Shown piece after piece: positions 657 through 51,902 of a stretch of DNA of 52,055 nucleotides (the first letter of the stretch is position 1; each line of letters begins with the position of its first letter). This DNA is from Hormoscilla sp. (GTDB lineage: Bacteria; Cyanobacteriota; Cyanobacteriia; Cyanobacteriales; Desertifilaceae), in the NCBI GenBank assembly GCA_051439505.1, contig JBFRWI010000028.1, forward strand, positions 1 through 52,055. Direction: 5' to 3'. The notes under the pieces are model-generated. The model worked only from the letters and a program-made list of their open reading frames with translations, was not told the origin of the DNA and ran no database searches. Made by a program: the position numbers and the translations under genes.

Positions 657-2435
657 TCAAAGTTGAAAATTAATGCTGAAGTAGAAACCTCGATCTTGAG
701 CGTTGTTACCCCGATCGTCCAGAACTACGAAAGGCAAAGCATAGTCAAATCGCACATCGACACCAGGGAGAGGCTGCCAAGCTAATCCTAAACCGAAACT
801 AGCAAGAAAGGTCTGTTCCGGTAAAGAATTGGGATTATCAAACTTATTCCAGACCATGCCCAGATCCACAAAAGGAATCAACTGGACAGTTAAATCATTT
901 GTATCATCCCGCCCGACAGTAATTCTGTCTTCAATAGAAAGCCGAAAACCATTATCTCCAGCCCGGGCATTTTGGCGATAGCCCCGCAAAGATTGACCGC
1001 CGCCAATCAGAAATTGTTGGGAAGGTAAGAGACTATCAGGGGTAAGCTGGAGGTCCGCCTGCAAGATGAGTAAATGATCGGCACCCAAACGCTGCACCCG
1101 CCTACCAGAGAAAAACCAGCTAAAGAAACGTCCATCGGGAATGGGTTCGGGATTGATGGTAGCATCTAATAGGCCCGTGCCGAAACTAAATTGCGATCGC
1201 AGGGCCCAAGCACCGTTAACTTCACGGTGTAAAAAAGAAGTTCCCAGCTTCACTACACTGGTAGTACTGTTACCATCATCGTCAGGGCCAAAACCAAAGC
1301 CAAAAGGTTGATTGTCAAACAAAAAAGTTTGACCACTTTGGTGAGATAACCCGACAGATATAGCGAACTCTGAACGCAGGTTGCGCAGCAGAGGTTGCTG
1401 GTAAGTAATATCAAAAGCCCTCGACTTGCCCCGAATACCAACATTCTGGAATTCAGGCGCAGTAATATGATTGCGACTTCCTGCTATTGTGAGTGAGAGA
1501 GTACCATCTCTAGCATTGAGGGGCACCCGATAATCAAAGGAATAAACATCAGCGCCCCCCGTAGTAGTGCGGCTATAGGATCCCGCTAACTCATCACCAA
1601 TGCCAATTAAATTACGATAGCGAACCGTACCGCCAAATCTTTCACTGCCAATAGTGGGGGGAGAATAGTTATCCACAAATAAGCTAGTATCTATATGTTT
1701 CGCCTCAGTCACCCGCACTACGAGAATACTGCGATCGACATCGCCGCCCGCACGCAGACTAGCTTCCACATTCTCAAATAAAGGATTAGTATTGAGCAAT
1801 CTTAACTGCTCTTCTATATCGGCAGTATTTAGAGGCATCTTGACTCCCAAACGTACCCGCGATCGGATGTATTCTGGATTGATTTTGCGCGTTCCTTCCA
1901 CTTCGATCGACTCCAGAGACCCTTCGATCACCCGAATCTGAACGATACCTGCGATAATCTCTTGGTCTGGTATAATTGCTCTAGAGTTTATGAAGCCGCC
2001 CTTGAGGTACAATTGGGTAATGCGATCGGCTGTCTGGGTTAGTTCCTTCAGGGTCACGGAACGGCCTAACAAAGGTTGGACGATCGGGTCAAGAATATCC
2101 GGTCCGAAAATAGTACTGCCGACAACTTCAATTCTCTCGATCGCGATCGGTTGTTCTGCTTCTGCCGATGGGTTGGGTGTAGTCTGCATTTGTTGCATAG
2201 GGATCCCCCCCAACCCCCCCCTTCCAAAAGGGGGGGCTTCCGAAGCCCCCCTTTTTAAGGGGGGTTTGGGGGGATCGGACGACTGGGCGTAGTTTGTCAC
2301 CCGATCGTCCGGATGTGATATAGAAGCATAACTAGCCCCACCTGTGGCAATATAGGCAACAACAACCAAACCAGAAATTAAAAAATCATATCGGCGTTGC
2401 ATATTTTCGGAATGATGGTTGGGAAATTTTGCCAA
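657..2435 (-). CDS. ShlB/FhaC/HecB family two-partner secretion transporter (TpsB) with an in-frame repeat insertion near the N-terminus
   Basis: POTRA motif (ADRITQLYLKGGFINSRA), barrel loop motif GGGQSLRGY, C-terminal beta strand FYFSINFQL. Confidence 0.9.
   Translation of the reverse strand: MAKFPNHHSENMQRRYDFLISGLVVVAYIATGGASYASISHPDDRVTNYAQSSDPPKPPLKRGASEAPPFGRGGLGGIPMQQMQTTPNPSAEAEQPIAIERIEVVGSTIFGPDILDPIVQPLLGRSVTLKELTQTADRITQLYLKGGFINSRAIIPDQEIIAGIVQIRVIEGSLESIEVEGTRKINPEYIRSRVRLGVKMPLNTADIEEQLRLLNTNPLFENVEASLRAGGDVDRSILVVRVTEAKHIDTSLFVDNYSPPTIGSERFGGTVRYRNLIGIGDELAGSYSRTTTGGADVYSFDYRVPLNARDGTLSLTIAGSRNHITAPEFQNVGIRGKSRAFDITYQQPLLRNLRSEFAISVGLSHQSGQTFLFDNQPFGFGFGPDDDGNSTTSVVKLGTSFLHREVNGAWALRSQFSFGTGLLDATINPEPIPDGRFFSWFFSGRRVQRLGADHLLILQADLQLTPDSLLPSQQFLIGGGQSLRGYRQNARAGDNGFRLSIEDRITVGRDDTNDLTVQLIPFVDLGMVWNKFDNPNSLPEQTFLASFGLGLAWQPLPGVDVRFDYALPFVVLDDRGNNAQDRGFYFSINFQL
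2175..2287. mobile_element. Partial MITE copy (GGGTGT(A/G)GTC family) inside the TpsB coding sequence
   Basis: 113 bp nearly identical to 30058-30170. It has one terminal repeat (GGGTGTAGTCTGCATTTGTTG) and the CCCCCCTT..AAGGGGGG palindrome; the other end and a TSD are not visible. Confidence 0.85.
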
Positions 2436-23077: not shown

Positions 23078-23578
23078 AGCCAATATATAAATCTCCCATG
23101 AGAGGGAAAAAAAATTATTAAACCCTTGACAAGTTCCACTCCCGTTAGCTATACTTTATTCAGAAATAAAGGTTCATGGGGGCTTGGAAAATCAACAACA
23201 CAAGCCCAAGCGAAACCAGAGATGCCCGGCCCGGACTGCGCTCATAGCGCCCCACTTGGGTCAAGCAACGGTTCACCAGGCGCTGAAGAGCGTAACTCCG
23301 GGTCAGGTAAATCTCTTTATCGCTCACGCAAGACTCCACAAGGAGAGCGCAGTGGCAGGGTTCTCCTGCGCATTTTTAATTTTGCGGTCCCTGAGCGTTA
23401 GTCGAAGGGAAGTGTTGAAGGAGAGAGCCCGCACCCAACAAATGCATGACCACACCCCTGAGCCATTAGCCATTAGCCCGCGCAGGCTTTCGCGTTGGTT
23501 CATGTAGCCGGGGGCCATGCAAGGGTTCCGGCGACCAGGTCTCCTACCAACGGGCGCCAGACCACATCCAGCCGTTAC
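23078..23578 (-). ncRNA. ssrS: 6S RNA, interrupted by a ~326-bp insertion
   Basis: 5' arm 23578-23497 and 3' arm 23178-23078 pair into a long rod with a central bubble (GAACCCTTG/CAAGGGTTT; GGCTGGATGTGG/TTATATATTGGCT). The G-U pairs work only on the minus strand. Length is ~175 nt once the insert is removed. Confidence 0.8.
23179..23496. mobile_element. Composite non-coding insertion inside ssrS
   Basis: Flanked by direct repeat GGTTCATG (23171-23178, 23497-23504). Contains a MITE terminus CAACAAATGCATGACCACACCC (23436-23457), a CCCTGAGCGTTAGTCGAAGGG repeat and (AGCCATT)2 heptamers. Confidence 0.75.
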
Positions 23579-26648: not shown

Positions 26649-27272
26649 TTAGTAACAACCCGTGTCTTGACTCGTGCGCAATCCTCCAATATAGGTGGAA
26701 ACAAACACGCAACGTCTAGCTGTCCCACCATTTTTACTTTTTACCGTTATTCGTCCAAAAGGAGGTCTATACACATTACCATAACGATCGAACCGCATTC
26801 GCCACAAATCGTCCCCGGGCTCACTATATATATCTTGTCCAGGTAAGGTTGTCTCTTCCCTATCTATTTCTACATTTTCATCCAAGCTGTTCCAAATCAC
26901 TGCATAGCGGTTAGGATCAGATGGACCCGGGTCAGGATCGACAAGGGGTATATTGAAATCATCGTCGTTGTCTGTAGCACGATGTACCGCCCACTGTGCC
27001 AGTGATTTGCCATCTATCTCTACCTGTCGAAAGCTAGCTTGCCAAGTCAAATTATTCTGCTTTCCTTGGCTTTGAGCCTCCCGCATAGCCCGGTAATTTG
27101 CGTCGTTGGCAATGCTGAGGCGTTGACTGTTGACGAAACCCAGCCAGGTGAGTCCCCCGATCGCACTTAATATCGCGATCGTTGCCACCACGACTAATAC
27201 TTCTATCAGCGTAAACCCCGCAGTGGTTTGCCGTAATTTTTTACTGGATCTATGCAGTTTTTTCATCTGCAC
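26649..27272 (-). CDS. Type IV minor pilin / pseudopilin (HpsH/GspH-like)
   Basis: Prepilin site G|FTLIE, hydrophobic helix, C-terminal Cys pair. Confidence 0.85.
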   Translation of the reverse strand: MQMKKLHRSSKKLRQTTAGFTLIEVLVVVATIAILSAIGGLTWLGFVNSQRLSIANDANYRAMREAQSQGKQNNLTWQASFRQVEIDGKSLAQWAVHRATDNDDDFNIPLVDPDPGPSDPNRYAVIWNSLDENVEIDREETTLPGQDIYSEPGDDLWRMRFDRYGNVYRPPFGRITVKSKNGGTARRCVFVSTYIGGLRTSQDTGCY

Positions 27273-27439: not shown

Positions 27440-28138
27440 CTATGAACCCGGTCTACAGTCAGAACCTTGATCTGTTTGTACCGCACCCAATATAGTTTTG
27501 ATCACCACGCATCGGCTAGTTGATTCAACTCCCTCATCCGGATCGCTCGAACTGGGAACGCTTACCGCTACCCTGAAACCGGCTGAGCCTTCAGCCAAAT
27601 CTGCTTCTGTGGGTAAAGGTTCGATCGCCCCATATTGATCGAACCCTATTGTTATCTCCTCGCCATCTTCTTCATCTGGTTGTGGGTAAGCATCTCCAAT
27701 CGATGTGATTTGGTTTTCCTCTCCTAACACCATGTTAGTCCATAGCAATATTTGATTTGCTTGTATTTCCTGAGCTTCACCCAACTGTTTCCACGATAAA
27801 TCACTCACATCTTCTACATTCACATCCCCATCATGCAAGGCATATTCAGCCTCTCCTGCCAAATTTACTCTGAAGCTGATTCTGCGCCTCAGCCTTAGCT
27901 GTTTTGCTTCTGACTGAGCTTCTTTTATCGCTCTAAATATTTCGTCATTTACTGTACTCACTCGCTGCTGCTGCGTAAATAATAGCCAGCCGGGAAGTGC
28001 GATCGCACTCAATACAGCCACCATTGCTATCACCACCAGCAACTCTATGAGTGTAAACCCAGCCTCCGATGCTGCTGTTCTACCTTTGGTAAGATGCCCA
28101 TTTCTATCAATATCTCTACTACCCATACTCGACCTCAT
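27440..28138 (-). CDS. Type IV minor pilin / pseudopilin (HpsD-like)
   Basis: G|FTLIELLVV; fourth gene in the hpsA-led cluster. Confidence 0.85.
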   Translation of the reverse strand: MRSSMGSRDIDRNGHLTKGRTAASEAGFTLIELLVVIAMVAVLSAIALPGWLLFTQQQRVSTVNDEIFRAIKEAQSEAKQLRLRRRISFRVNLAGEAEYALHDGDVNVEDVSDLSWKQLGEAQEIQANQILLWTNMVLGEENQITSIGDAYPQPDEEDGEEITIGFDQYGAIEPLPTEADLAEGSAGFRVAVSVPSSSDPDEGVESTSRCVVIKTILGAVQTDQGSDCRPGS

Positions 28139-28172: not shown

Positions 28173-29219
28173 CTAATTAGCTCCTAACAAGCCACGTCCT
28201 TGCACTCTTATAGTTGTTGTCGGAAAAAATTGCGATCGCGAACTCTTATATTCAGCGTTTTCAATACTGTTGAACCTCGCTAAGGCGTTCCCCCGAATGT
28301 ATATTCTAGCTTGGGTTGAGTCCGAGTCAATACAAGCGTAAAAACTACCTGTTTTCAATACATCAGGAAACCCTCCCTCAGTATAGTTTGGCACTAGCTG
28401 CGCTGTCTCCGACATGCGATCGTCACAAAATTCATCGTATTGTTCGGTGGTCATCGCGCCGTGTGGCAGTGGTATTTCTGCTGTGTCCGTGCTTTGGTCG
28501 ATAAAATCAACTAACACATGAGCATTTTGAGTATAAGCGTCTGCTGCTTTTGTCCATCGGTTCATCTTCTCCTTCAGCGTACCTGTTCCACCGAGATTAA
28601 AAATCGCAAACCCAGGGTCTGGTTCAAAATCTGTTATATAAACACCATCACCGTCTGGATCCACTCCATCCTCTATTTGAAATCTGGATATCCGCGCTGT
28701 TCCAGACTCAGACCATGTAGAGCTACTATCTTTTATTAAATAGTAGCCCACGAGTGAGTAGACAAACGTATCGTCATCACCACCACTAACAGGGATTACG
28801 TTTTCCTTCAATTCTCGCTTCCAGAAGACTAGCACAGGTCTACAAGTACTAGCATCCCCGCAACCTGGCGCCAGACTGTCGGGTGGTATTTGGTCTCTAA
28901 TCCCAGAATCTCCTGTATCACTATGGACTGTTGTTAATGAATCGTTATCATATATATATACTGCTTGCCTTAAGTCCCGGGCTATATAGTCAATTGCTGC
29001 CTGAATTTCCAGCTCTGAGTTGGTCTTCGCTTGTTCCCGGCGCTCTGTGGTGAGGATATTTACCATAAACCCCAGCAGAGATGATATTATTATCGATGAA
29101 ATCACCAATGCTACTAAAAGTTCAATCAGGGTGAAGCCACTCTGCTTTCTGGTTAGCTTCGCAGTTTTCAGCTTTAAACTTATAATATATTCCAATATTT
29201 TATTCATCTTCATTTTCAC
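28173..29219 (-). CDS. hpsC: Hormogonium polysaccharide secretion pseudopilin HpsC-like
   Basis: G|FTLIELLVA, IDYIARDLRQAVYIYD, PVLVFWKR and YIRGNALAR; position in the cluster. Confidence 0.8.
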   Translation of the reverse strand: MKMKMNKILEYIISLKLKTAKLTRKQSGFTLIELLVALVISSIIISSLLGFMVNILTTERREQAKTNSELEIQAAIDYIARDLRQAVYIYDNDSLTTVHSDTGDSGIRDQIPPDSLAPGCGDASTCRPVLVFWKRELKENVIPVSGGDDDTFVYSLVGYYLIKDSSSTWSESGTARISRFQIEDGVDPDGDGVYITDFEPDPGFAIFNLGGTGTLKEKMNRWTKAADAYTQNAHVLVDFIDQSTDTAEIPLPHGAMTTEQYDEFCDDRMSETAQLVPNYTEGGFPDVLKTGSFYACIDSDSTQARIYIRGNALARFNSIENAEYKSSRSQFFPTTTIRVQGRGLLGAN

Positions 29220-29340: not shown

Positions 29341-30306
29341 TCAACTACAACCCCCAATTCGTTCACACAAATTACTGTATCCCGCCCCATCTTCAGCCGG
29401 AATTTCTGTTGTTAGCTCGATCAATGGCACCTTGCGCAAACCCAGACCGCTAGTATAGGTCCTTTGTCTGCCTGTTACCTCCGTTGGATGGGAACCTGCT
29501 GATTTCAGTTCCTCATCGTCGCTGAACGCATCGGCCCGATACACCCGCACGCTCACCAGATAGCCTCGCCTACCATCCGCTTGCCTTGCCGCCTCATCAG
29601 CATCTGTAATACTTAGATAGCCAGTGTTTGTCGTGCTGCGAAAAGCTTGAATTACCATGTCTTTCATGCTGTCAGTGCTACAACCGCTTTCTTCATCCTG
29701 GTCTACACAGTACAAGCTCCAGCTGGGATTGTTCTGACAATAGGGATATAATGTTGGCCCGCAGCCTCCTAGGTCACTGCTAGGATTTGCTGGAGGAATT
29801 GTTGCAGCAAAGGTGCCTATAAACTCAGACCAAGTCGTAGTCGTCCCATCTATCACCACTGCGTGGTTCGGATGAGGAGTTGTTTGAGTGCTCAGACCAT
29901 CAATGTAGGTCCAAGCTGCTTGCGTGGCCATTTCTACCCTTCTTGCTTGCACTCGGGTTGCTACTGCCAGGACGACCATCGGCGCGATCGATGTCAACAA
30001 AATCGCCACTACCACAATTGCCATCAATGACTCCATGATAGTGAAACCCGACTGGTTGGGTGTGGTCTGCATTTGTTGCTCCCGGGATCCCCCCCAAACC
30101 CCCCCTTCCAAAAGGGGGGGCCTTGAAGCCCCCCTTTTTAAGGGGGGTTTGGGGGGATCGGACGACTGGGACGGCCCATGAACGCTCAACGGGTTTTGAC
30201 CACACCCCGACTGGTTTGAGCGGGACCACCAGGAATGGAGTTTTCCTAATAGGGGAGTTTTCCTCCCCTGCAAGTCATGTTTTGTTCTTCCCATCATTGT
30301 CTTCAC
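29341..30306 (-). CDS. hpsB: Hormogonium polysaccharide secretion pseudopilin HpsB-like, leader extended by a MITE
   Basis: G|FTIMESLMAIVVV, VATRVQARRVE and GYLVSVRVYRADAF; directly follows hpsA. Confidence 0.82.
   Translation of the reverse strand: MKTMMGRTKHDLQGRKTPLLGKLHSWWSRSNQSGCGQNPLSVHGPSQSSDPPKPPLKRGASRPPLLEGGVWGGSREQQMQTTPNQSGFTIMESLMAIVVVAILLTSIAPMVVLAVATRVQARRVEMATQAAWTYIDGLSTQTTPHPNHAVVIDGTTTTWSEFIGTFAATIPPANPSSDLGGCGPTLYPYCQNNPSWSLYCVDQDEESGCSTDSMKDMVIQAFRSTTNTGYLSITDADEAARQADGRRGYLVSVRVYRADAFSDDEELKSAGSHPTEVTGRQRTYTSGLGLRKVPLIELTTEIPAEDGAGYSNLCERIGGCS
30058..30207. mobile_element. Complete 150-bp MITE, in frame in the hpsB leader
   Basis: Perfect 10-bp TIRs GGGTGTGGTC / GACCACACCC; 9-bp TSD CGACTGGTT (30049-30057, 30208-30216). 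Confidence 0.95.
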
Positions 30307-30312
30307 CGATTA

Positions 30313-33300
30313 TCAGGATGGATTATCAGGATAGTTTGACAGATCTAGGCAATCATTTGGACGCTGGTCTGCCCCAGGAATCGCATAGCGCTGATATGTA
30401 GCGCCTGGTAGTCCGACATAAGTTTGTGGAGTCGAGTCCGGATCTCGGGCTTCCGCAGCACACATTAAGGCTTCCACCCAATCATCGTCGCGATTTACTT
30501 CCCGCATAAATTCCTTGGGAGATTCCGCTGTCTCTACCGTAAACTGTTCGGCAAACAAGTCCGGTGGCTGAGACAGTAGCCCCAGATCGAACCCCCACTG
30601 ACGGCCCGGTGGATTGTAATAGGGAATTGCACCCAGCACGTTATTCCCAGTATATCCCAGAGGTTTCGTACCGTTGTCAGTTTTATATCCTTGCCTCTCT
30701 ACAAACAGATAGGCATCGTCCGCTTCGGTAGTATTCAGCAGGGTGAAAAATGGTGCTGTAGCATAGTTATTTTTCTTAGTCTCTATGAACGAACCCGATA
30801 TGTTCAGGTCAACATAGTCTTCGTCACCCGCACGCACCCAGTTCTCCAACGTCCTCACAAAGTTATGAAGGCCACCACCATCTTCGTTTCTTGTATAGGG
30901 ACTGTCCTGCACGCGCACTGGTCCTTGACCGGAAACCGCTACTATATTGAAGGTCGATTCTGTTGCACGGGGCTGCCATCTCGTCCATTTTACTACGCAA
31001 CTCTCCCCATTGCAGTTTGAACCAGGGTCGCGACCGTTAATTGCATTAACAAAACTACCTAGATCCGAGTCACCAGTTAAATGTCGTGTTGTTACCTGCT
31101 GTTGCAATACTGGCTCCAATAGCGGCTGCTCGACCTCATTACTGATTGCTGTTCTCCAAGTTGCTGAGCTTGTGTTGTCCAAAATCACATCTTCTAATAG
31201 GTAGTCTCCATCATACTGTTGTTGATACCACAGCCATCGAGTATTACCGTAGCGGCGATTGGAACCTTGTCTTGTTACATACCACAGAGCATTGTCTTCA
31301 CGTCGAGGATGGTTTGCACCTGGCGATACCGGACCGAACCCTTCAAACTCAGTCAGAATACCACTACCACTCAGGTCTAATACGTTGTCAGTTACAGGGA
31401 GCTTAATCCTATCGGTTCCACTACTTGGATTCTGGTAAGGATACCAATCTAGCGTTCCGTCCCCCTCGTCTTTTATCCCGATCGGGATTGGTCTTCGAGC
31501 CGTTCCTGTGGTGACCACTATCAAGCGATTGTTTGCGGGATTTCTCAGGAAAGCCACCCGACGAGGATAGCGTTGCTCTACTTTATTTAAATCAGTATCA
31601 AGCGGGTCTATTGGACTGCGGGCCATCTGTACTGTCGTGCCTGACAACAGATTCCCCACTGGCGTCCCTATGGGAATTTCGCTTGCTTTTTCATTTCCCG
31701 TTCCTGTCGTCAAACCAACTACCCAGTCATCAGCTGTACATAAGGAAACCATCGGCTTGCGACATATTTCCATCACATACTCATAGAAATTAGTCCGCCG
31801 TTGAACTGGCGTGACAAAGTTGTTGAAGTAGGAACTTGCTTGGTATGCTATTAGATCCTCTTCATCAGTTGTCACCAAACTTCTGTAGTCACTATCTAGG
31901 AAATCATGACTCGTGACGTAGTTGTTGGCAAAGAATCCGTTGTCTCGGCGCTCGATCTCCGGGTCAAAGATTTCCATCGTTTCGTCTATAGTCCCATCAC
32001 CATTCCTGTCAATTCTCATAATCCCATTTGCAGTACTGTCCTCATCGTTTCTCCCACCGCCAGCATTATTTCTCAGGTCGTAATCTCCATCTACCCGGTA
32101 ACCAAACTCAAAACTATCAGACAGCAATGTGGTCGAATCTGAGATTATCGTGGCCGATCGCCACAAGTCTCCGTTTGCAGATGCACTTGCACAAACAGAG
32201 CTAGGGGGCGCCGGGCGACGGCAGGCAAAGTTTGGATCTATAGCGCTACTTGTGCGGTTGTAGAAATTTCCCCAGTCATCCGCTAGATCGGTAGTAAACT
32301 CTTCTAGAGCCGCTCCCACTGGCGTCTGATGCTTATTGAAATCGCCTTTTATATATACTGGCAATGGCGTTGCCAATACCAAGCCCTTTTCTTCATCCCT
32401 AAAATTACCGTCATTTACTGGCGTTCTATTTCTGTCTAGCCGATCGCCATTAATCAGCAATATCGCATTAGGACGGCGAGTCGGGTCAAGCTTAAAGTCT
32501 ACCGCGCTGAGGTTTAGCTGGGACGAGCCCGGAGGAGCACTCCGGTCTGGCAGGGCATCATCCCGGGTAGCATAAATTATCCCCGTATTGGGCAGCATAA
32601 ACTCTGGATTGGGCGCATCAGCTATAGCTGCAATTCCCTGATTCCGCAGTAAATTCAAGTCTAGCACCGTCGCCCGAATTTCCAACGGCTGCCTTTCTTC
32701 TACTGGGAGGTCATACCCCGGGTCATAGCCTGCATCTAGAGCCCCATTGTTAAAGCTGAAGGTTTCATCTAGATCTGTTGTACCATCGTCCGCGTGAATT
32801 GCCCTGATTTGCTGGGCATCCAGGAAAGTTTGTTCGTATATCGAGCCTGGGGTTATGGGCGGACTCGTGTCTGGAGCAAAACCCCCACTCGTATATCCTG
32901 CCAGGATTCTCAGGGAACATATCGCTGCATCGATCGCCCCATTCTCTTCAAAGGTAAACTCTGCACTACTGTCTGCTGCATATTTTTCCATCGCCGATCT
33001 TAATGGGGGGTTGGCGATCCGTCCATTGGGAAATACTATACTTGCCTGGGTTCTCAGTCGCGATCCCCAAGTCCCCATCAGCATCGTTCTGTCTTCTTCG
33101 CTGTGGGGCGGATCGTAAACTACCCCATTATTAGAACGACCCTTCTCAGCATCGTAGCGCTCATCCCAATCAGGCTCTCCAGATTCTACAAAGTTCTTGG
33201 CCGTCGTTTCAGTTGTGGGGTCGTAGTAGCTGCTGACACAGGCTAAAGGGAGCTGGTTTCTCGATTCGTCTGGAGAGGAATTAGCGTAGTGATATACCAC

Positions 33301-35844
33301 CGTTGACCTCATCAGCAGGTCTCCCATTAGATCCCGCTCATCGTTAGTTATAGCTGTATAAGGAGAAGCTAGGCTATATCCTAGAACTGGAGGGGGATCT
33401 GAATCGCCATCCCTTATCACTGGCGGTAGTTGATTGGGAACTTCCTCATCCCCATCATTCTCCCACTCCCAGTAGAATGCTAAATCCTCGGTGCCTAAAG
33501 TTGCTATATCGCCTGCGGTCAAGTCCGTGTCTGCCCACATCGGCATTGTGTCCGGCCATGCCACTATATTTGCGCCGAAGGTAGGAGCAGCCACTGTCAC
33601 GTCTTCACCTAGTTGCGGTGCCGGTAGGAAAGATATGTTTTTTCGTGGAAATAAAGAATCGCCCGCTACATATATTCCAGCGCCTGTTACCACTCGCAGT
33701 CCACCTTTATTTTCCAGCCTCTGAATTGGTTTGTCAGCAGCAGCCCTTTCCCAGAAGCCGTTGCGGTTAGTCGTTCCCAAGTCATCCAACCGTTGCACGC
33801 GAGTTTTGCGATAGCGAGTTCCGTCCCCCGCATTCCAGTTAATCCCCGAAAGCTCTTGGGTTTCGTCATCACCCACAAAGTCACCCAGAGAGTCCTTATA
33901 CCACAGCGCTGGCAGGTTGTTTCCCAGCAAGATCCGATCGCCTAGGTACTCTTCGTACCCTTGATCTTCCTGTTGTTGGGGTTCTGTCATCCCCGGTAAT
34001 GCGACCGAGCCGCTAATGTTTAAGCTCAGCCCCGTATAGCCTGTGCTGGTTGTTCCATCTATCGGATCTGTCGGAAATGCCCAGGCATTCGGCGGTCGCA
34101 GCCCTTCTGCTGCCTCTCCTGCTGACACCGATGCAAAAGGAGATCCCTCGAACACACCTGCATTAGCATCCGCTAACCCATCGCTGTCGCTATCTACATC
34201 GTAGGTGGTTCCCAATGCACTAGCACCACTGGCCACTTCCTTAAAAGGTATTCGGCGGGTACGATTTCTCATGTATAGTTCCAGTTCTTCCAACCGTACC
34301 GTTACTGGGTCTAAGGATGAGTCTTCTCTTAGCCTCGCCTTCACCCGCGTTCTCACCACTTGCGGATCTCTCGTCGTGTCCGTCACGTCCCCGCCCGAGA
34401 CCGTGTAGCTTCCTCCCGAACCCAGCTCAGCCGATCTTGTCAGAAAGTCTATGCGCTCCTCATATGCCTCATTGTTATAAGCCACATTTCTGGGAGCCTC
34501 ACCACTCACTGATTGAGATCCACTTGTAATATCACGAGAACTGGGAGCTGAGCCTACTGCCAGGTCTTCATTAAACATATCAACCTGCACTGCATAGGTA
34601 CTAATGCTACTGTCCCAACTTGCACCTCCATTAACTAAATTACCCCCTACAACCGCCTTGGAGTTTTCTTCCTGAAAAAAGCAAGATGCTGGAGAGCTGA
34701 TTAAATACAGCCTGATTGGGCAGCCGCTTCCTCCACCGCAGTTTTCAGACATAAACATATTGCTATTCGTAAATACCCGTCCATTCAGCCTGAATGGAGT
34801 ACCTGGCGTCAGCGATAAGTCGTCCTGATACCATACTGCCTGATACTGTAGCGGTATCTGACCTTGGTCTTGCTGCATCTCCAGCGCCGCAAATCCCTTA
34901 TTCCCTTGGTATTTTTCGTACCTATCCTCTGCCCCCATCTCCACAACACTTGCTATCTCCGACGGTTCAACAGTTATCGGCACTGTCGCCGTGTATACAT
35001 AAAAGCTTTTTCTCAGTTCGCTGCCCACCTTATACCAACCGTTGCTGCCCACCAAAGCAGCGCTAGTACCTATAGCACCCTCGCAGCCCGACTCTATACT
35101 CACCTCCTCCATTGGCGGTGTTCTTGCTTCTAAGGCCGTTCTCGGTCTAGTCGTAGATGTGCCACTAATAGGCGGACTGCGGAAATATAGTCCGTATAGA
35201 GTAAAGCTGTCGTACTTCCCATTATTATCCGTATCTACGGGAAACTTCCAAGCCGTGTTGCTAGTTTCGCTGTTTGCTAATTCCGTTGCCGAACCATCGT
35301 CAGTACTATTTACCGTTCCATCTCCAGTTTCAGAGTACACTCCCGCTCCGTTGCCAAAATCATCAATCACTTTCAGGGCTATTTCATCTCCGAAGGTGTA
35401 TCTTCCCGGTTGACTGACGATCGCATTGTACAGAGTTCTTTCTGATGGGGTCGATCTCGGTAGGGTCGGGTCACTAAATAACGCCTCTATTTTGGCCTTG
35501 GCACGTTCTATTGCTGGTCCAGAAGCGTTCAGCGCCGCCTGAGATACTCTAAAGTTGCTAGCATTTTTCGCTCGATCTAAGGAACGCAGCACCATCGCCG
35601 TTGTCAGCAATACCACCACCAACATCACCATTGCCACCGTCGGCAACACAAAGCCTGATGTGCCGTGGCGTCGTCCTCTGCGCCCCCTACCCACCAGACT
35701 GGCCAATAACCTATTTCTCAAACGATGAAGCAATTTCACCGACATCCGCCACAGATGTCTGAAGCTTCTTTGTAGTTTTCTGAAAAACTTGCCTATCGAC
35801 ATGGTAGCCTTCCTGATTTTACTATCTCTAGATTCCGTTTCCAC
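30313..35844 (-). CDS. hpsA: Hormogonium polysaccharide biosynthesis protein HpsA-like (large pilin-like protein)
   Basis: G|FVLPTVAMVMLVVVLLT, AWKFPVDTDNNGKYDSFTLYG, GGLHNFVRTLENW and WGFDLGLLSQPPDLFA; 1843 aa. Confidence 0.9.
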   Translation of the reverse strand: METESRDSKIRKATMSIGKFFRKLQRSFRHLWRMSVKLLHRLRNRLLASLVGRGRRGRRHGTSGFVLPTVAMVMLVVVLLTTAMVLRSLDRAKNASNFRVSQAALNASGPAIERAKAKIEALFSDPTLPRSTPSERTLYNAIVSQPGRYTFGDEIALKVIDDFGNGAGVYSETGDGTVNSTDDGSATELANSETSNTAWKFPVDTDNNGKYDSFTLYGLYFRSPPISGTSTTRPRTALEARTPPMEEVSIESGCEGAIGTSAALVGSNGWYKVGSELRKSFYVYTATVPITVEPSEIASVVEMGAEDRYEKYQGNKGFAALEMQQDQGQIPLQYQAVWYQDDLSLTPGTPFRLNGRVFTNSNMFMSENCGGGSGCPIRLYLISSPASCFFQEENSKAVVGGNLVNGGASWDSSISTYAVQVDMFNEDLAVGSAPSSRDITSGSQSVSGEAPRNVAYNNEAYEERIDFLTRSAELGSGGSYTVSGGDVTDTTRDPQVVRTRVKARLREDSSLDPVTVRLEELELYMRNRTRRIPFKEVASGASALGTTYDVDSDSDGLADANAGVFEGSPFASVSAGEAAEGLRPPNAWAFPTDPIDGTTSTGYTGLSLNISGSVALPGMTEPQQQEDQGYEEYLGDRILLGNNLPALWYKDSLGDFVGDDETQELSGINWNAGDGTRYRKTRVQRLDDLGTTNRNGFWERAAADKPIQRLENKGGLRVVTGAGIYVAGDSLFPRKNISFLPAPQLGEDVTVAAPTFGANIVAWPDTMPMWADTDLTAGDIATLGTEDLAFYWEWENDGDEEVPNQLPPVIRDGDSDPPPVLGYSLASPYTAITNDERDLMGDLLMRSTVVYHYANSSPDESRNQLPLACVSSYYDPTTETTAKNFVESGEPDWDERYDAEKGRSNNGVVYDPPHSEEDRTMLMGTWGSRLRTQASIVFPNGRIANPPLRSAMEKYAADSSAEFTFEENGAIDAAICSLRILAGYTSGGFAPDTSPPITPGSIYEQTFLDAQQIRAIHADDGTTDLDETFSFNNGALDAGYDPGYDLPVEERQPLEIRATVLDLNLLRNQGIAAIADAPNPEFMLPNTGIIYATRDDALPDRSAPPGSSQLNLSAVDFKLDPTRRPNAILLINGDRLDRNRTPVNDGNFRDEEKGLVLATPLPVYIKGDFNKHQTPVGAALEEFTTDLADDWGNFYNRTSSAIDPNFACRRPAPPSSVCASASANGDLWRSATIISDSTTLLSDSFEFGYRVDGDYDLRNNAGGGRNDEDSTANGIMRIDRNGDGTIDETMEIFDPEIERRDNGFFANNYVTSHDFLDSDYRSLVTTDEEDLIAYQASSYFNNFVTPVQRRTNFYEYVMEICRKPMVSLCTADDWVVGLTTGTGNEKASEIPIGTPVGNLLSGTTVQMARSPIDPLDTDLNKVEQRYPRRVAFLRNPANNRLIVVTTGTARRPIPIGIKDEGDGTLDWYPYQNPSSGTDRIKLPVTDNVLDLSGSGILTEFEGFGPVSPGANHPRREDNALWYVTRQGSNRRYGNTRWLWYQQQYDGDYLLEDVILDNTSSATWRTAISNEVEQPLLEPVLQQQVTTRHLTGDSDLGSFVNAINGRDPGSNCNGESCVVKWTRWQPRATESTFNIVAVSGQGPVRVQDSPYTRNEDGGGLHNFVRTLENWVRAGDEDYVDLNISGSFIETKKNNYATAPFFTLLNTTEADDAYLFVERQGYKTDNGTKPLGYTGNNVLGAIPYYNPPGRQWGFDLGLLSQPPDLFAEQFTVETAESPKEFMREVNRDDDWVEALMCAAEARDPDSTPQTYVGLPGATYQRYAIPGADQRPNDCLDLSNYPDNPS

Positions 35845-51881: not shown

Positions 51882-51902
51882 GGGTGTGGTCAAAACCAGT
51901 TG
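51882..51902 (+). mobile_element. Terminus of another GGGTGTGGTC-family element
   Basis: GGGTGTGGTCAAAACCAGTTG matches the reverse complement of 30187-30207 at 20/21 positions. Confidence 0.75.

Follow-up and report, generated by a model that had tools for sequence, protein, structure and literature searches.

A 150-bp MITE sits in frame in the leader-coding part of the prepilin gene hpsB, within an operon of the window (the whole stretch of 52,055 nucleotides that was analysed). It was confirmed as a true, lineage-specific insertion, and we think it probable that the insertion is tolerated and that the peptide is discarded, as predicted, when PilD removes the leader. The stronger result is the family itself: the MITE resembles the RPEs, has a candidate transposase in the same genome, and has landed in proteins about 20 times.

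The preliminary description of this DNA had assigned to hpsB a 150-bp element bounded by perfect 10-bp TIRs and flanked by a 9-bp TSD, and we recovered the same bounds at the same window coordinates (Table 1). Its further claims of 53 added codons and of a regenerated cleavage site also stood: the element plus one TSD amounted to 159 nt, or 53 codons with zero stops, and the minus-strand frame read WWSRS-NQS, 50 element residues, and then NQS-G|FTIME, with the site rebuilt by the TSD. An empty site, for which an alignment of orthologs had been proposed, was present in three of the three congener loci aligned (G001, G003, and G004), in each of which one AACCAGTCG stands immediately before the Gly-Phe codons. 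Depth at the two junctions was 130 and 126 in contigs of run X1 (flank 137-147) and 180 and 179 in contigs of run X2 (flank 204-222), these runs belonging to one study and one of them possibly being the source sample. The empty-site joint was not found among the contigs of the two runs, contigs being of a kind that hides rare variants. The TIR of the family is about 21 bp long and imperfect, and the hpsB copy is without one T inside one TIR as compared with the common end. It is also rather diverged, with a nearest neighbour at 89.5%, a value that was lower in just 14 of 79 copies, and it differs from that nearest relative copy by four small indels.

Table 1. Features of the hpsB operon, of the inserted element, and of other in-frame copies. 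Positions are those of the window; those with a C label belong to copies elsewhere in G000.
Feature	Position	Strand	Remarks
hpsB prepilin	29341..30297	-	native ATG 30297; 84-aa leader + 234-aa mature pilin; frame open from GTG 30306
Predicted PilD cleavage site Gly/Phe	30043..30048	-	FTIME, Glu at +5; cleavage predicted
hpsA (NF038301)	30313..35844	-	upstream in operon
hpsC (NF038304)	28173-29219	-	downstream in operon, no insert
Two further prepilins	27440-28138, 26649-27272	-	downstream in operon, no insert
MITE, 150 bp	30058..30207	.	non-autonomous, no transposase; minus-strand reading gives 50 Pro/Gly-rich residues, HpsB leader
TIR, upstream end on coding strand	30198..30207	.	10 bp perfect, GGGTGTGGTC; ~21 bp imperfect, common to ISKra4-like IS
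TIR, downstream end on coding strand	30058..30067	.	GGGTGTGGTC; short-end variant, one T missing just inside
TSD copy 1, AACCAGTCG	30208..30216	-	codons N-Q-S ahead of element
TSD copy 2, AACCAGTCG	30049..30057	-	N-Q-S restored before cleavage glycine
Inner G/C-rich branched hairpin	30086..30159	.	GATC at both bounds; outnumbers TIR-bearing ends genome-wide
Possible second start, element-borne	30070..30083	-	GGGAG 30083-30079, 6-nt spacer, in-frame ATG 30072-30070; 9-residue leader
One-end-trimmed short-end copy	2175..2288	-	in frame in ShlB/TpsB-type outer-membrane transporter gene 657-2435
In-frame copy, menC	C132:76692		
In-frame copy, menD	C169:3200		
In-frame copy, lnt	C167:38911		
In-frame copy, rsmG	C97:1237		
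In-frame copy, hydroxy-acid oxidase	C135:7130		
In-frame copy, NFACT protein	C44:31545		
In-frame copy, PTS EIIA-HPr-EI fusion	C101:1273		
In-frame copy, GAF hybrid kinase	C43:29704		

The ORF at 29341-30306(-) was identified as HpsB by NCBIfam model NF038303 (231 bits, cut-off 150), with the match beginning at NQSG|F, and the nearest named HpsB homologs were from Hormoscilla at 86% identity. TIGR02532 scored above its cut-off, and PF07963, at 20.8 bits, stayed just under its cut-off of 21.2. Gly at -1, Phe at +1, Glu at +5, and the hydrophobic helix that follows were all present, and pilD occurred in the genome as one copy with an intact open frame. AlphaFold gave a confident pilin body with the pilin helix at residues 87-137, and residues 1-80 had a pLDDT of about 44-54 with no secondary structure; Foldseek against the PDB returned nothing at E<=0.001, the top row being a minor pseudopilin (E 1.1). 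The dN/dS of mature HpsB against three congeners was 0.39-0.55, which indicates purifying selection over the whole branch, pre-insertion time included. Private changes in mature hpsB numbered 12.5 synonymous and 14.5 non-synonymous, with no stop and with the cysteines kept. Since the cleavage signature is intact, the single pilD is intact, and the mature protein is under purifying selection, the insert is likely to be discarded with the leader, and removal of the insert peptide together with the leader is the outcome that we predict as most likely from these features. The neighbouring HpsA (30313-35844, -) has a long natural basic leader of its own before G|FVL, of 64 aa from a GTG and of 50 or 31 from later ATGs; the available text of PMC13759059 places HpsA in the PilX class of core minor pilins.

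The insertion lengthened the leader from the native 31 aa to 84 aa, which is longer than all other HpsB leaders measured in three sets: 101 of 120 proteins (median 18, maximum 79), 140 genes (median 17, maximum 62), and 137 loci read by a first-ATG rule (median 29, maximum 80). Leaders of 40-60 aa with no inner ATG exist naturally among HpsB-like genes, and the absence of K/R from the last 9 leader residues is likewise found in 48 of 101 HpsB leaders. The unusual length is one reason to ask if the insert impairs hpsB, through poor processing or a block in the operon mRNA, with the gene a young pseudogene or dispensable here. Folding of 30030-30340 gave a z of -4.6, and a hairpin region of about -136 kcal/mol lies inside the operon; moreover, other in-frame copies strike enzyme cores, such as the oxidase insert between residues 275-277 inside the conserved hydroxy-acid oxidase fold, so that being in frame is no proof of harmlessness. 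Against impairment, neither hpsB nor hpsC has a stop or frameshift, dN/dS is below 1, a promoter and terminator scan found none (0 terminator-like sites), the divergence of the copy implies that it has lasted, and both junctions are at flank depth in the two runs. We therefore regard impairment as quite unlikely and a tolerated insertion as the better account.

How much of the insert is translated depends on the start codon. The native ATG stands 15 nt past the hpsA stop and agrees with annotated congener starts (P0002, P0004), and this position would favour coupled initiation with read-through of the element. The public gene call (P0001, 243 aa) begins instead at the in-frame element ATG at 30072, which has GGGAG ahead of it, so most of the insert is perhaps untranslated. 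Taken further, translation could run mainly from this ATG, with the upstream 75 codons mostly untranslated and the element having rescued the gene with a new start. The purine-rich end is found in the nearest family copy too, which implies that the start arrived together with the insertion, and the common-end variant would provide a second ATG in the downstream frame even if the upstream frame were broken, which offers a route via an out-of-frame stage. We nevertheless judge such a rescue unlikely, given the congener-like native start, an inner ATG that lies next to a very stable hairpin and to the stem of the TIRs (unpaired probability 0.32 on average versus 0.40-0.44 at native starts, a small difference), and an upstream frame that is still open despite the four small indels. 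Little can be concluded about read-through from the open frame, because in the orientation and phase of hpsB 31 of 103 copies would have one. A scan for anti-Shine-Dalgarno duplexes chose a G-run at spacing 13 and not GGGAG, and it did not separate the starts. The native start and the element start would yield an identical mature pilin.

The hpsB element is not a chance arrangement, since both its TIR 10-mer and TSD-flanked copies are abundant in the genome. The exact TIR 10-mer occurred 283+286 times in the 6.47 Mb, TIR-paired copies of 30-520 bp with a TSD numbered 128 (108 of them with perfect 9-mers), and a profile search of the genome with nhmmer gave 266 matches to the family. The commonest copy length was 150 bp (23/79). 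BLAST matches in the genome numbered about 340 over the hairpin core versus about 75 and 180 over the element ends. Within the genus the family was general: a TIR 14-mer was found 94-360 times per genome in five of five genus genomes and 0-13 times in 26 other relatives. The same TIR ends enclosed several unrelated inner hairpins of 52-500 bp, the termini acting as a shell for differing cargo, and the GATC-bounded hairpin was found also without TIR ends. Further exact TIR 10-mers in the window (23448-23457 and 51882-51891) fell outside the main hairpin subfamily.

A candidate autonomous partner was found at G000:C102:12439-14879 (L039:140-2580). This 2441-bp IS has 238-bp inverted ends, a 9-bp TSD, and a 481-aa transposase, and the outer bases of its inverted ends equal the MITE TIR. 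The transposase matched NF033572 (ISKra4) with 179.5 bits and E 1e-52 over positions 17-421 of 422, under a cut-off of 205, and it scored 64.9 bits with the ISLre2 model and matched Pfam UPF0236. A single full copy of the IS was found in G000. Of 151 genomes from the order, 11 had homologs of the transposase, and the same GGGTGTGGTCAAAA ends flanked them in 6 of the 10 other genomes (G028, G063, G086, G087, G108, and G152), with 9-bp duplications at the homologous IS in G063 and G152. The inverted ends are unusually long, the G152 relative having ends of 174 bp. Judged by the shared ends, an ISKra4-like IS of the Mutator type is likely the mover of the MITE. A first search for a partner by way of unpaired TIRs found none among the matches listed. 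Two other TIR-bounded elements were rejected as partners. The 2123-bp element at G000:C81:36974-39096 (L041:175-2297) proved to be an IS4-family element, with inner repeats of its own, nested inside the hairpin of a MITE copy. The 1405-bp element at G000:C174:29000-30404 (L040:700-2106) has MITE ends and a 9-bp duplication around 1.4 kb that carry a 22-bp tandem repeat and a non-transposase ORF of 240 aa (DUF4469); it is possibly a case of gene capture by MITE ends.

We further investigated where else the family lies in protein-coding sequence. The profile search gave 27 in-frame overlaps with long ORFs, of which 20 were retained after curation; the 7 excluded were six short or tandem pieces of the inner hairpin and one with a doubtful start, and one retained overlap (C72) is also doubtful. 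Named hosts included lnt, menD, menC, rsmG, a hydroxy-acid oxidase, an NFACT protein, a PTS EIIA-HPr-EI fusion, a YcaO protein, two sensor kinases, a CHASE2 cyclase, and a ShlB-type transporter encoded in the same window; a further host, taken by eye for NAD synthetase (C176), had no Pfam match at 1e-6. The family was read in three different frames. Six hosts besides hpsB were compared with four congeners. Under the thresholds applied, five of them (menD, lnt, the oxidase gene, NFACT, and one kinase gene) were single-copy in G000, and no insert was present at the congener loci with which they were compared; the sixth, the transporter gene, has paralogs, and its empty site is less clean. The menD, lnt, NFACT, and transporter loci of congeners (L076, L081-L084, L096, and L103) contained lineage-specific repeats as well, of different families and at different positions, and proteins of the genus seem riddled with repeats. 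A protein search with the insert peptide (residues 33-86) against proteins of 176-562 aa gave 1 candidate and none that was significant, and it was uninformative because G000 holds many such fusions.

The distribution of these copies bears on the proposal, made in the preliminary description, that the leader acts as a safe haven. The insert is likely lost with the leader, which agrees with that proposal, yet a haven was unnecessary, as about 19 in-frame copies lie in retained parts of proteins, five of them in genes shown to be single-copy. The transporter copy, for example, sits just after an apparent signal peptide (by eye) and would therefore remain in the mature protein. An enrichment in cleavable leaders, for which a test had been proposed, was not found: with leaders read by eye, hpsB was the one case among 20 in-frame copies, which is not an excess if cleaved leaders make up roughly 1% of coding sequence by our own estimate, and hpsB had itself been chosen for its leader location. 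A random copy would be in frame and stop-free in 0.113 of orientation and phase cases. In comparison, 5 of about 13-15 intragenic copies with a TSD were in frame (binomial P 0.011-0.021 versus 0.113), the denominator having been judged by hexamer score and by eye over the 60 best rows of the list of TSD copies. The copies that broke the frame lay in what we take to be small or accessory genes.

Targeting of prepilin leaders or cleavage motifs by the element or its transposase might be suspected, as the copy lies one codon ahead of the cleavage glycine and repeats recur in HpsB leaders of other lineages. The 9-bp targets were however near random (105 distinct 9-mers out of 108, with weak base bias only), one of eight genes with a prepilin motif carried the element, 1/20 in-frame copies was in a cleavable leader, and none of 137 HpsB-like leaders from an even sample matched the G000 repeat library. 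Targeting is thus very improbable, and the leader is likely a low-cost landing place selected by survival. We give just as little credence to removal of the element before translation ends, by RNA splicing or by ribosome hopping between the duplicated 9-mers. The TIRs pair in the predicted fold and bring the two identical 9-mers together, but skipped copies have no need to be a stop-free multiple of three, and copies in conserved genes are exactly that; an Rfam search of the element gave no family at gathering score and sub-threshold hairpin matches only.

The tolerated insertion that we favour would then proceed as follows. An ISKra4-like transposase would move the MITE into the hpsB leader at a 9-bp target that appears to be random. 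Ribosomes leaving hpsA would initiate at the native ATG and continue through the hairpin to make an 84-aa disordered cytoplasmic leader, which PilD would cut at the rebuilt Gly|Phe site. A share of the protein may start at the element ATG, with the mature pilin unchanged. The copy would have survived since its frame stayed open and the leader is predicted to be removed.

Copies with the short end of the hpsB element behaved differently from those with the common end. Five of 6 short-end copies were in frame in long ORFs versus none of 46 common-end copies (Fisher P 2e-6). The simplest reading is that short-end copies form an older subfamily, most of whose remaining members are those that genes have retained. 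In-gene copies in general were trimmed more often, both ends being kept in 10 of 20 versus 94 of 109 elsewhere (P 7e-4). The hpsB copy was the sole full 150-bp one among five short-end in-gene copies, a fact that fits a cost-free site only weakly. The notion that hpsB holds the only old copy left whole is itself weak, as an older 153-bp copy with both ends lies in a sensor kinase, in a part that is retained. A bolder and rather doubtful reading is a protein-dwelling branch of Mutator-type MITEs, in which the short-end variant suits reading frames and, within genes, persists longer than its sisters between genes. The sole refuge erased after translation would be prepilin leaders, where whole, mobilisable copies persist cost-free with their own start as a back-up. 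If so, cyanobacterial pilin leaders would be recurrent sinks for unrelated repeats, and the genus a tractable model for the entry of RPE-like elements into proteins.

We also looked for repeats in other HpsB leaders. Several long leaders among 120 HpsB homologs looked repeat-derived, of differing kinds. With the G000 repeat library at >=27 bits, 4 of 110 leaders (2,551 aa) matched and none of the 110 mature regions (25,077 aa) did; two of the four came from close relatives and one relied on a single match, which leaves about two solid events. In L244, where the leader repeat was confirmed at the DNA level, the start is 3 nt after the upstream gene stop with no other ATG, and the leader hairpin (L244:4001-4126) had 18 further matches in its own genome and resembles the MITE core; L244 had served as a query and is not an unbiased find. 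Another hpsB leader of 62 aa contained three hairpins (L355:212-397). Across 382 prepilin genes there was 1 library match in 28.5 kb of leader and 0 in 273 kb of mature sequence. The even sample of 137 HpsB-like loci showed no leader excess of hairpins. Recurrence of repeats in HpsB leaders is therefore real but rare, and tolerance by a disordered tail explains leader repeats no less well than cleavage.

That palindromic repeats occur in frame in bacterial proteins is known, and their entry route and the cost of their peptides are mostly untested. Here, the small element, a candidate transposase gene between like ends, and about 20 in-frame insertions occur together in one genome, and relatives that lack the insert are available for the seven hosts compared. 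At hpsB the cost could be zero, with the host predicted to remove the peptide, and the case allows a direct test of the leader length that PilD tolerates and of start-codon donation by a transposon. It also matters for annotation, as gene callers begin genes inside such elements.

In the accessible text of PMC3184786, cyanobacterial MITEs are TIR elements of 130-230 bp with direct repeats, stable hairpins, and filled and empty sites, and fusions with ORFs occur in Anabaena; that text does not mention a Mutator-type partner or a leader-peptide site. The present family is like Nezha, Muzha, the Anabaena MITEs (Wolk 2010, Fewer 2011), and the Microcystis MITEs by description. The candidate partner has inverted repeats that end in C and 9-bp direct repeats, in line with ISKra4 / p-MULT 4 as defined in the portion of PMC3942029 available to us (IRs of 18-39 bp with a terminal C and direct repeats of 8-9 bp); it departs from that group in its sub-cut-off score (179.5, cut-off 205) and 238-bp inverted ends, and the same portion mentions no MITE derivatives. 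Among titles and the starts of abstracts, we found no repeat in a prepilin or signal leader like the hpsB case and no description of an ISKra4-linked MITE that matches it, primary papers on cyanobacterial repeats and their supplements being sources that could bear on novelty; a literature text search for the TIR gave nothing relevant among the matches listed (20 of 150).

Repeats read in frame within proteins have been described as Rickettsia RPEs, as BRE and BOX elements, and as Anabaena MITEs (PMC10969869, PMC3184786, and PMC3733652, each in excerpt). The likeness to RPEs drawn in the preliminary description was partly borne out. RPEs are hairpin repeats of about 150 bp in frame in unrelated housekeeping genes according to extracts of PMC10969869, and the present family is a palindrome of about 150 bp with some 20 in-frame inserts, including the conserved genes lnt, menC, menD, and rsmG; being read in three frames, it makes no single conserved peptide. 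RPEs appear in excerpts of PMC3733652 as CGTC-tagged REP-like repeats, whereas the hpsB family shows clear TIRs together with a 9-bp TSD, its genome contains an identifiable autonomous IS, and one copy lies in a protein segment predicted to be discarded by the host, RPEs being compared here by description. The Geobacter sulfurreducens PilA, with leaders of 10 and 29 aa that are both cut by PilD (PMC6201914, in part), is a parallel of another kind, as two starts and two leader lengths lead to one mature pilin. Both starts are native in PilA, whereas in hpsB the second start is transposon-derived and the long leader reaches 84 aa.
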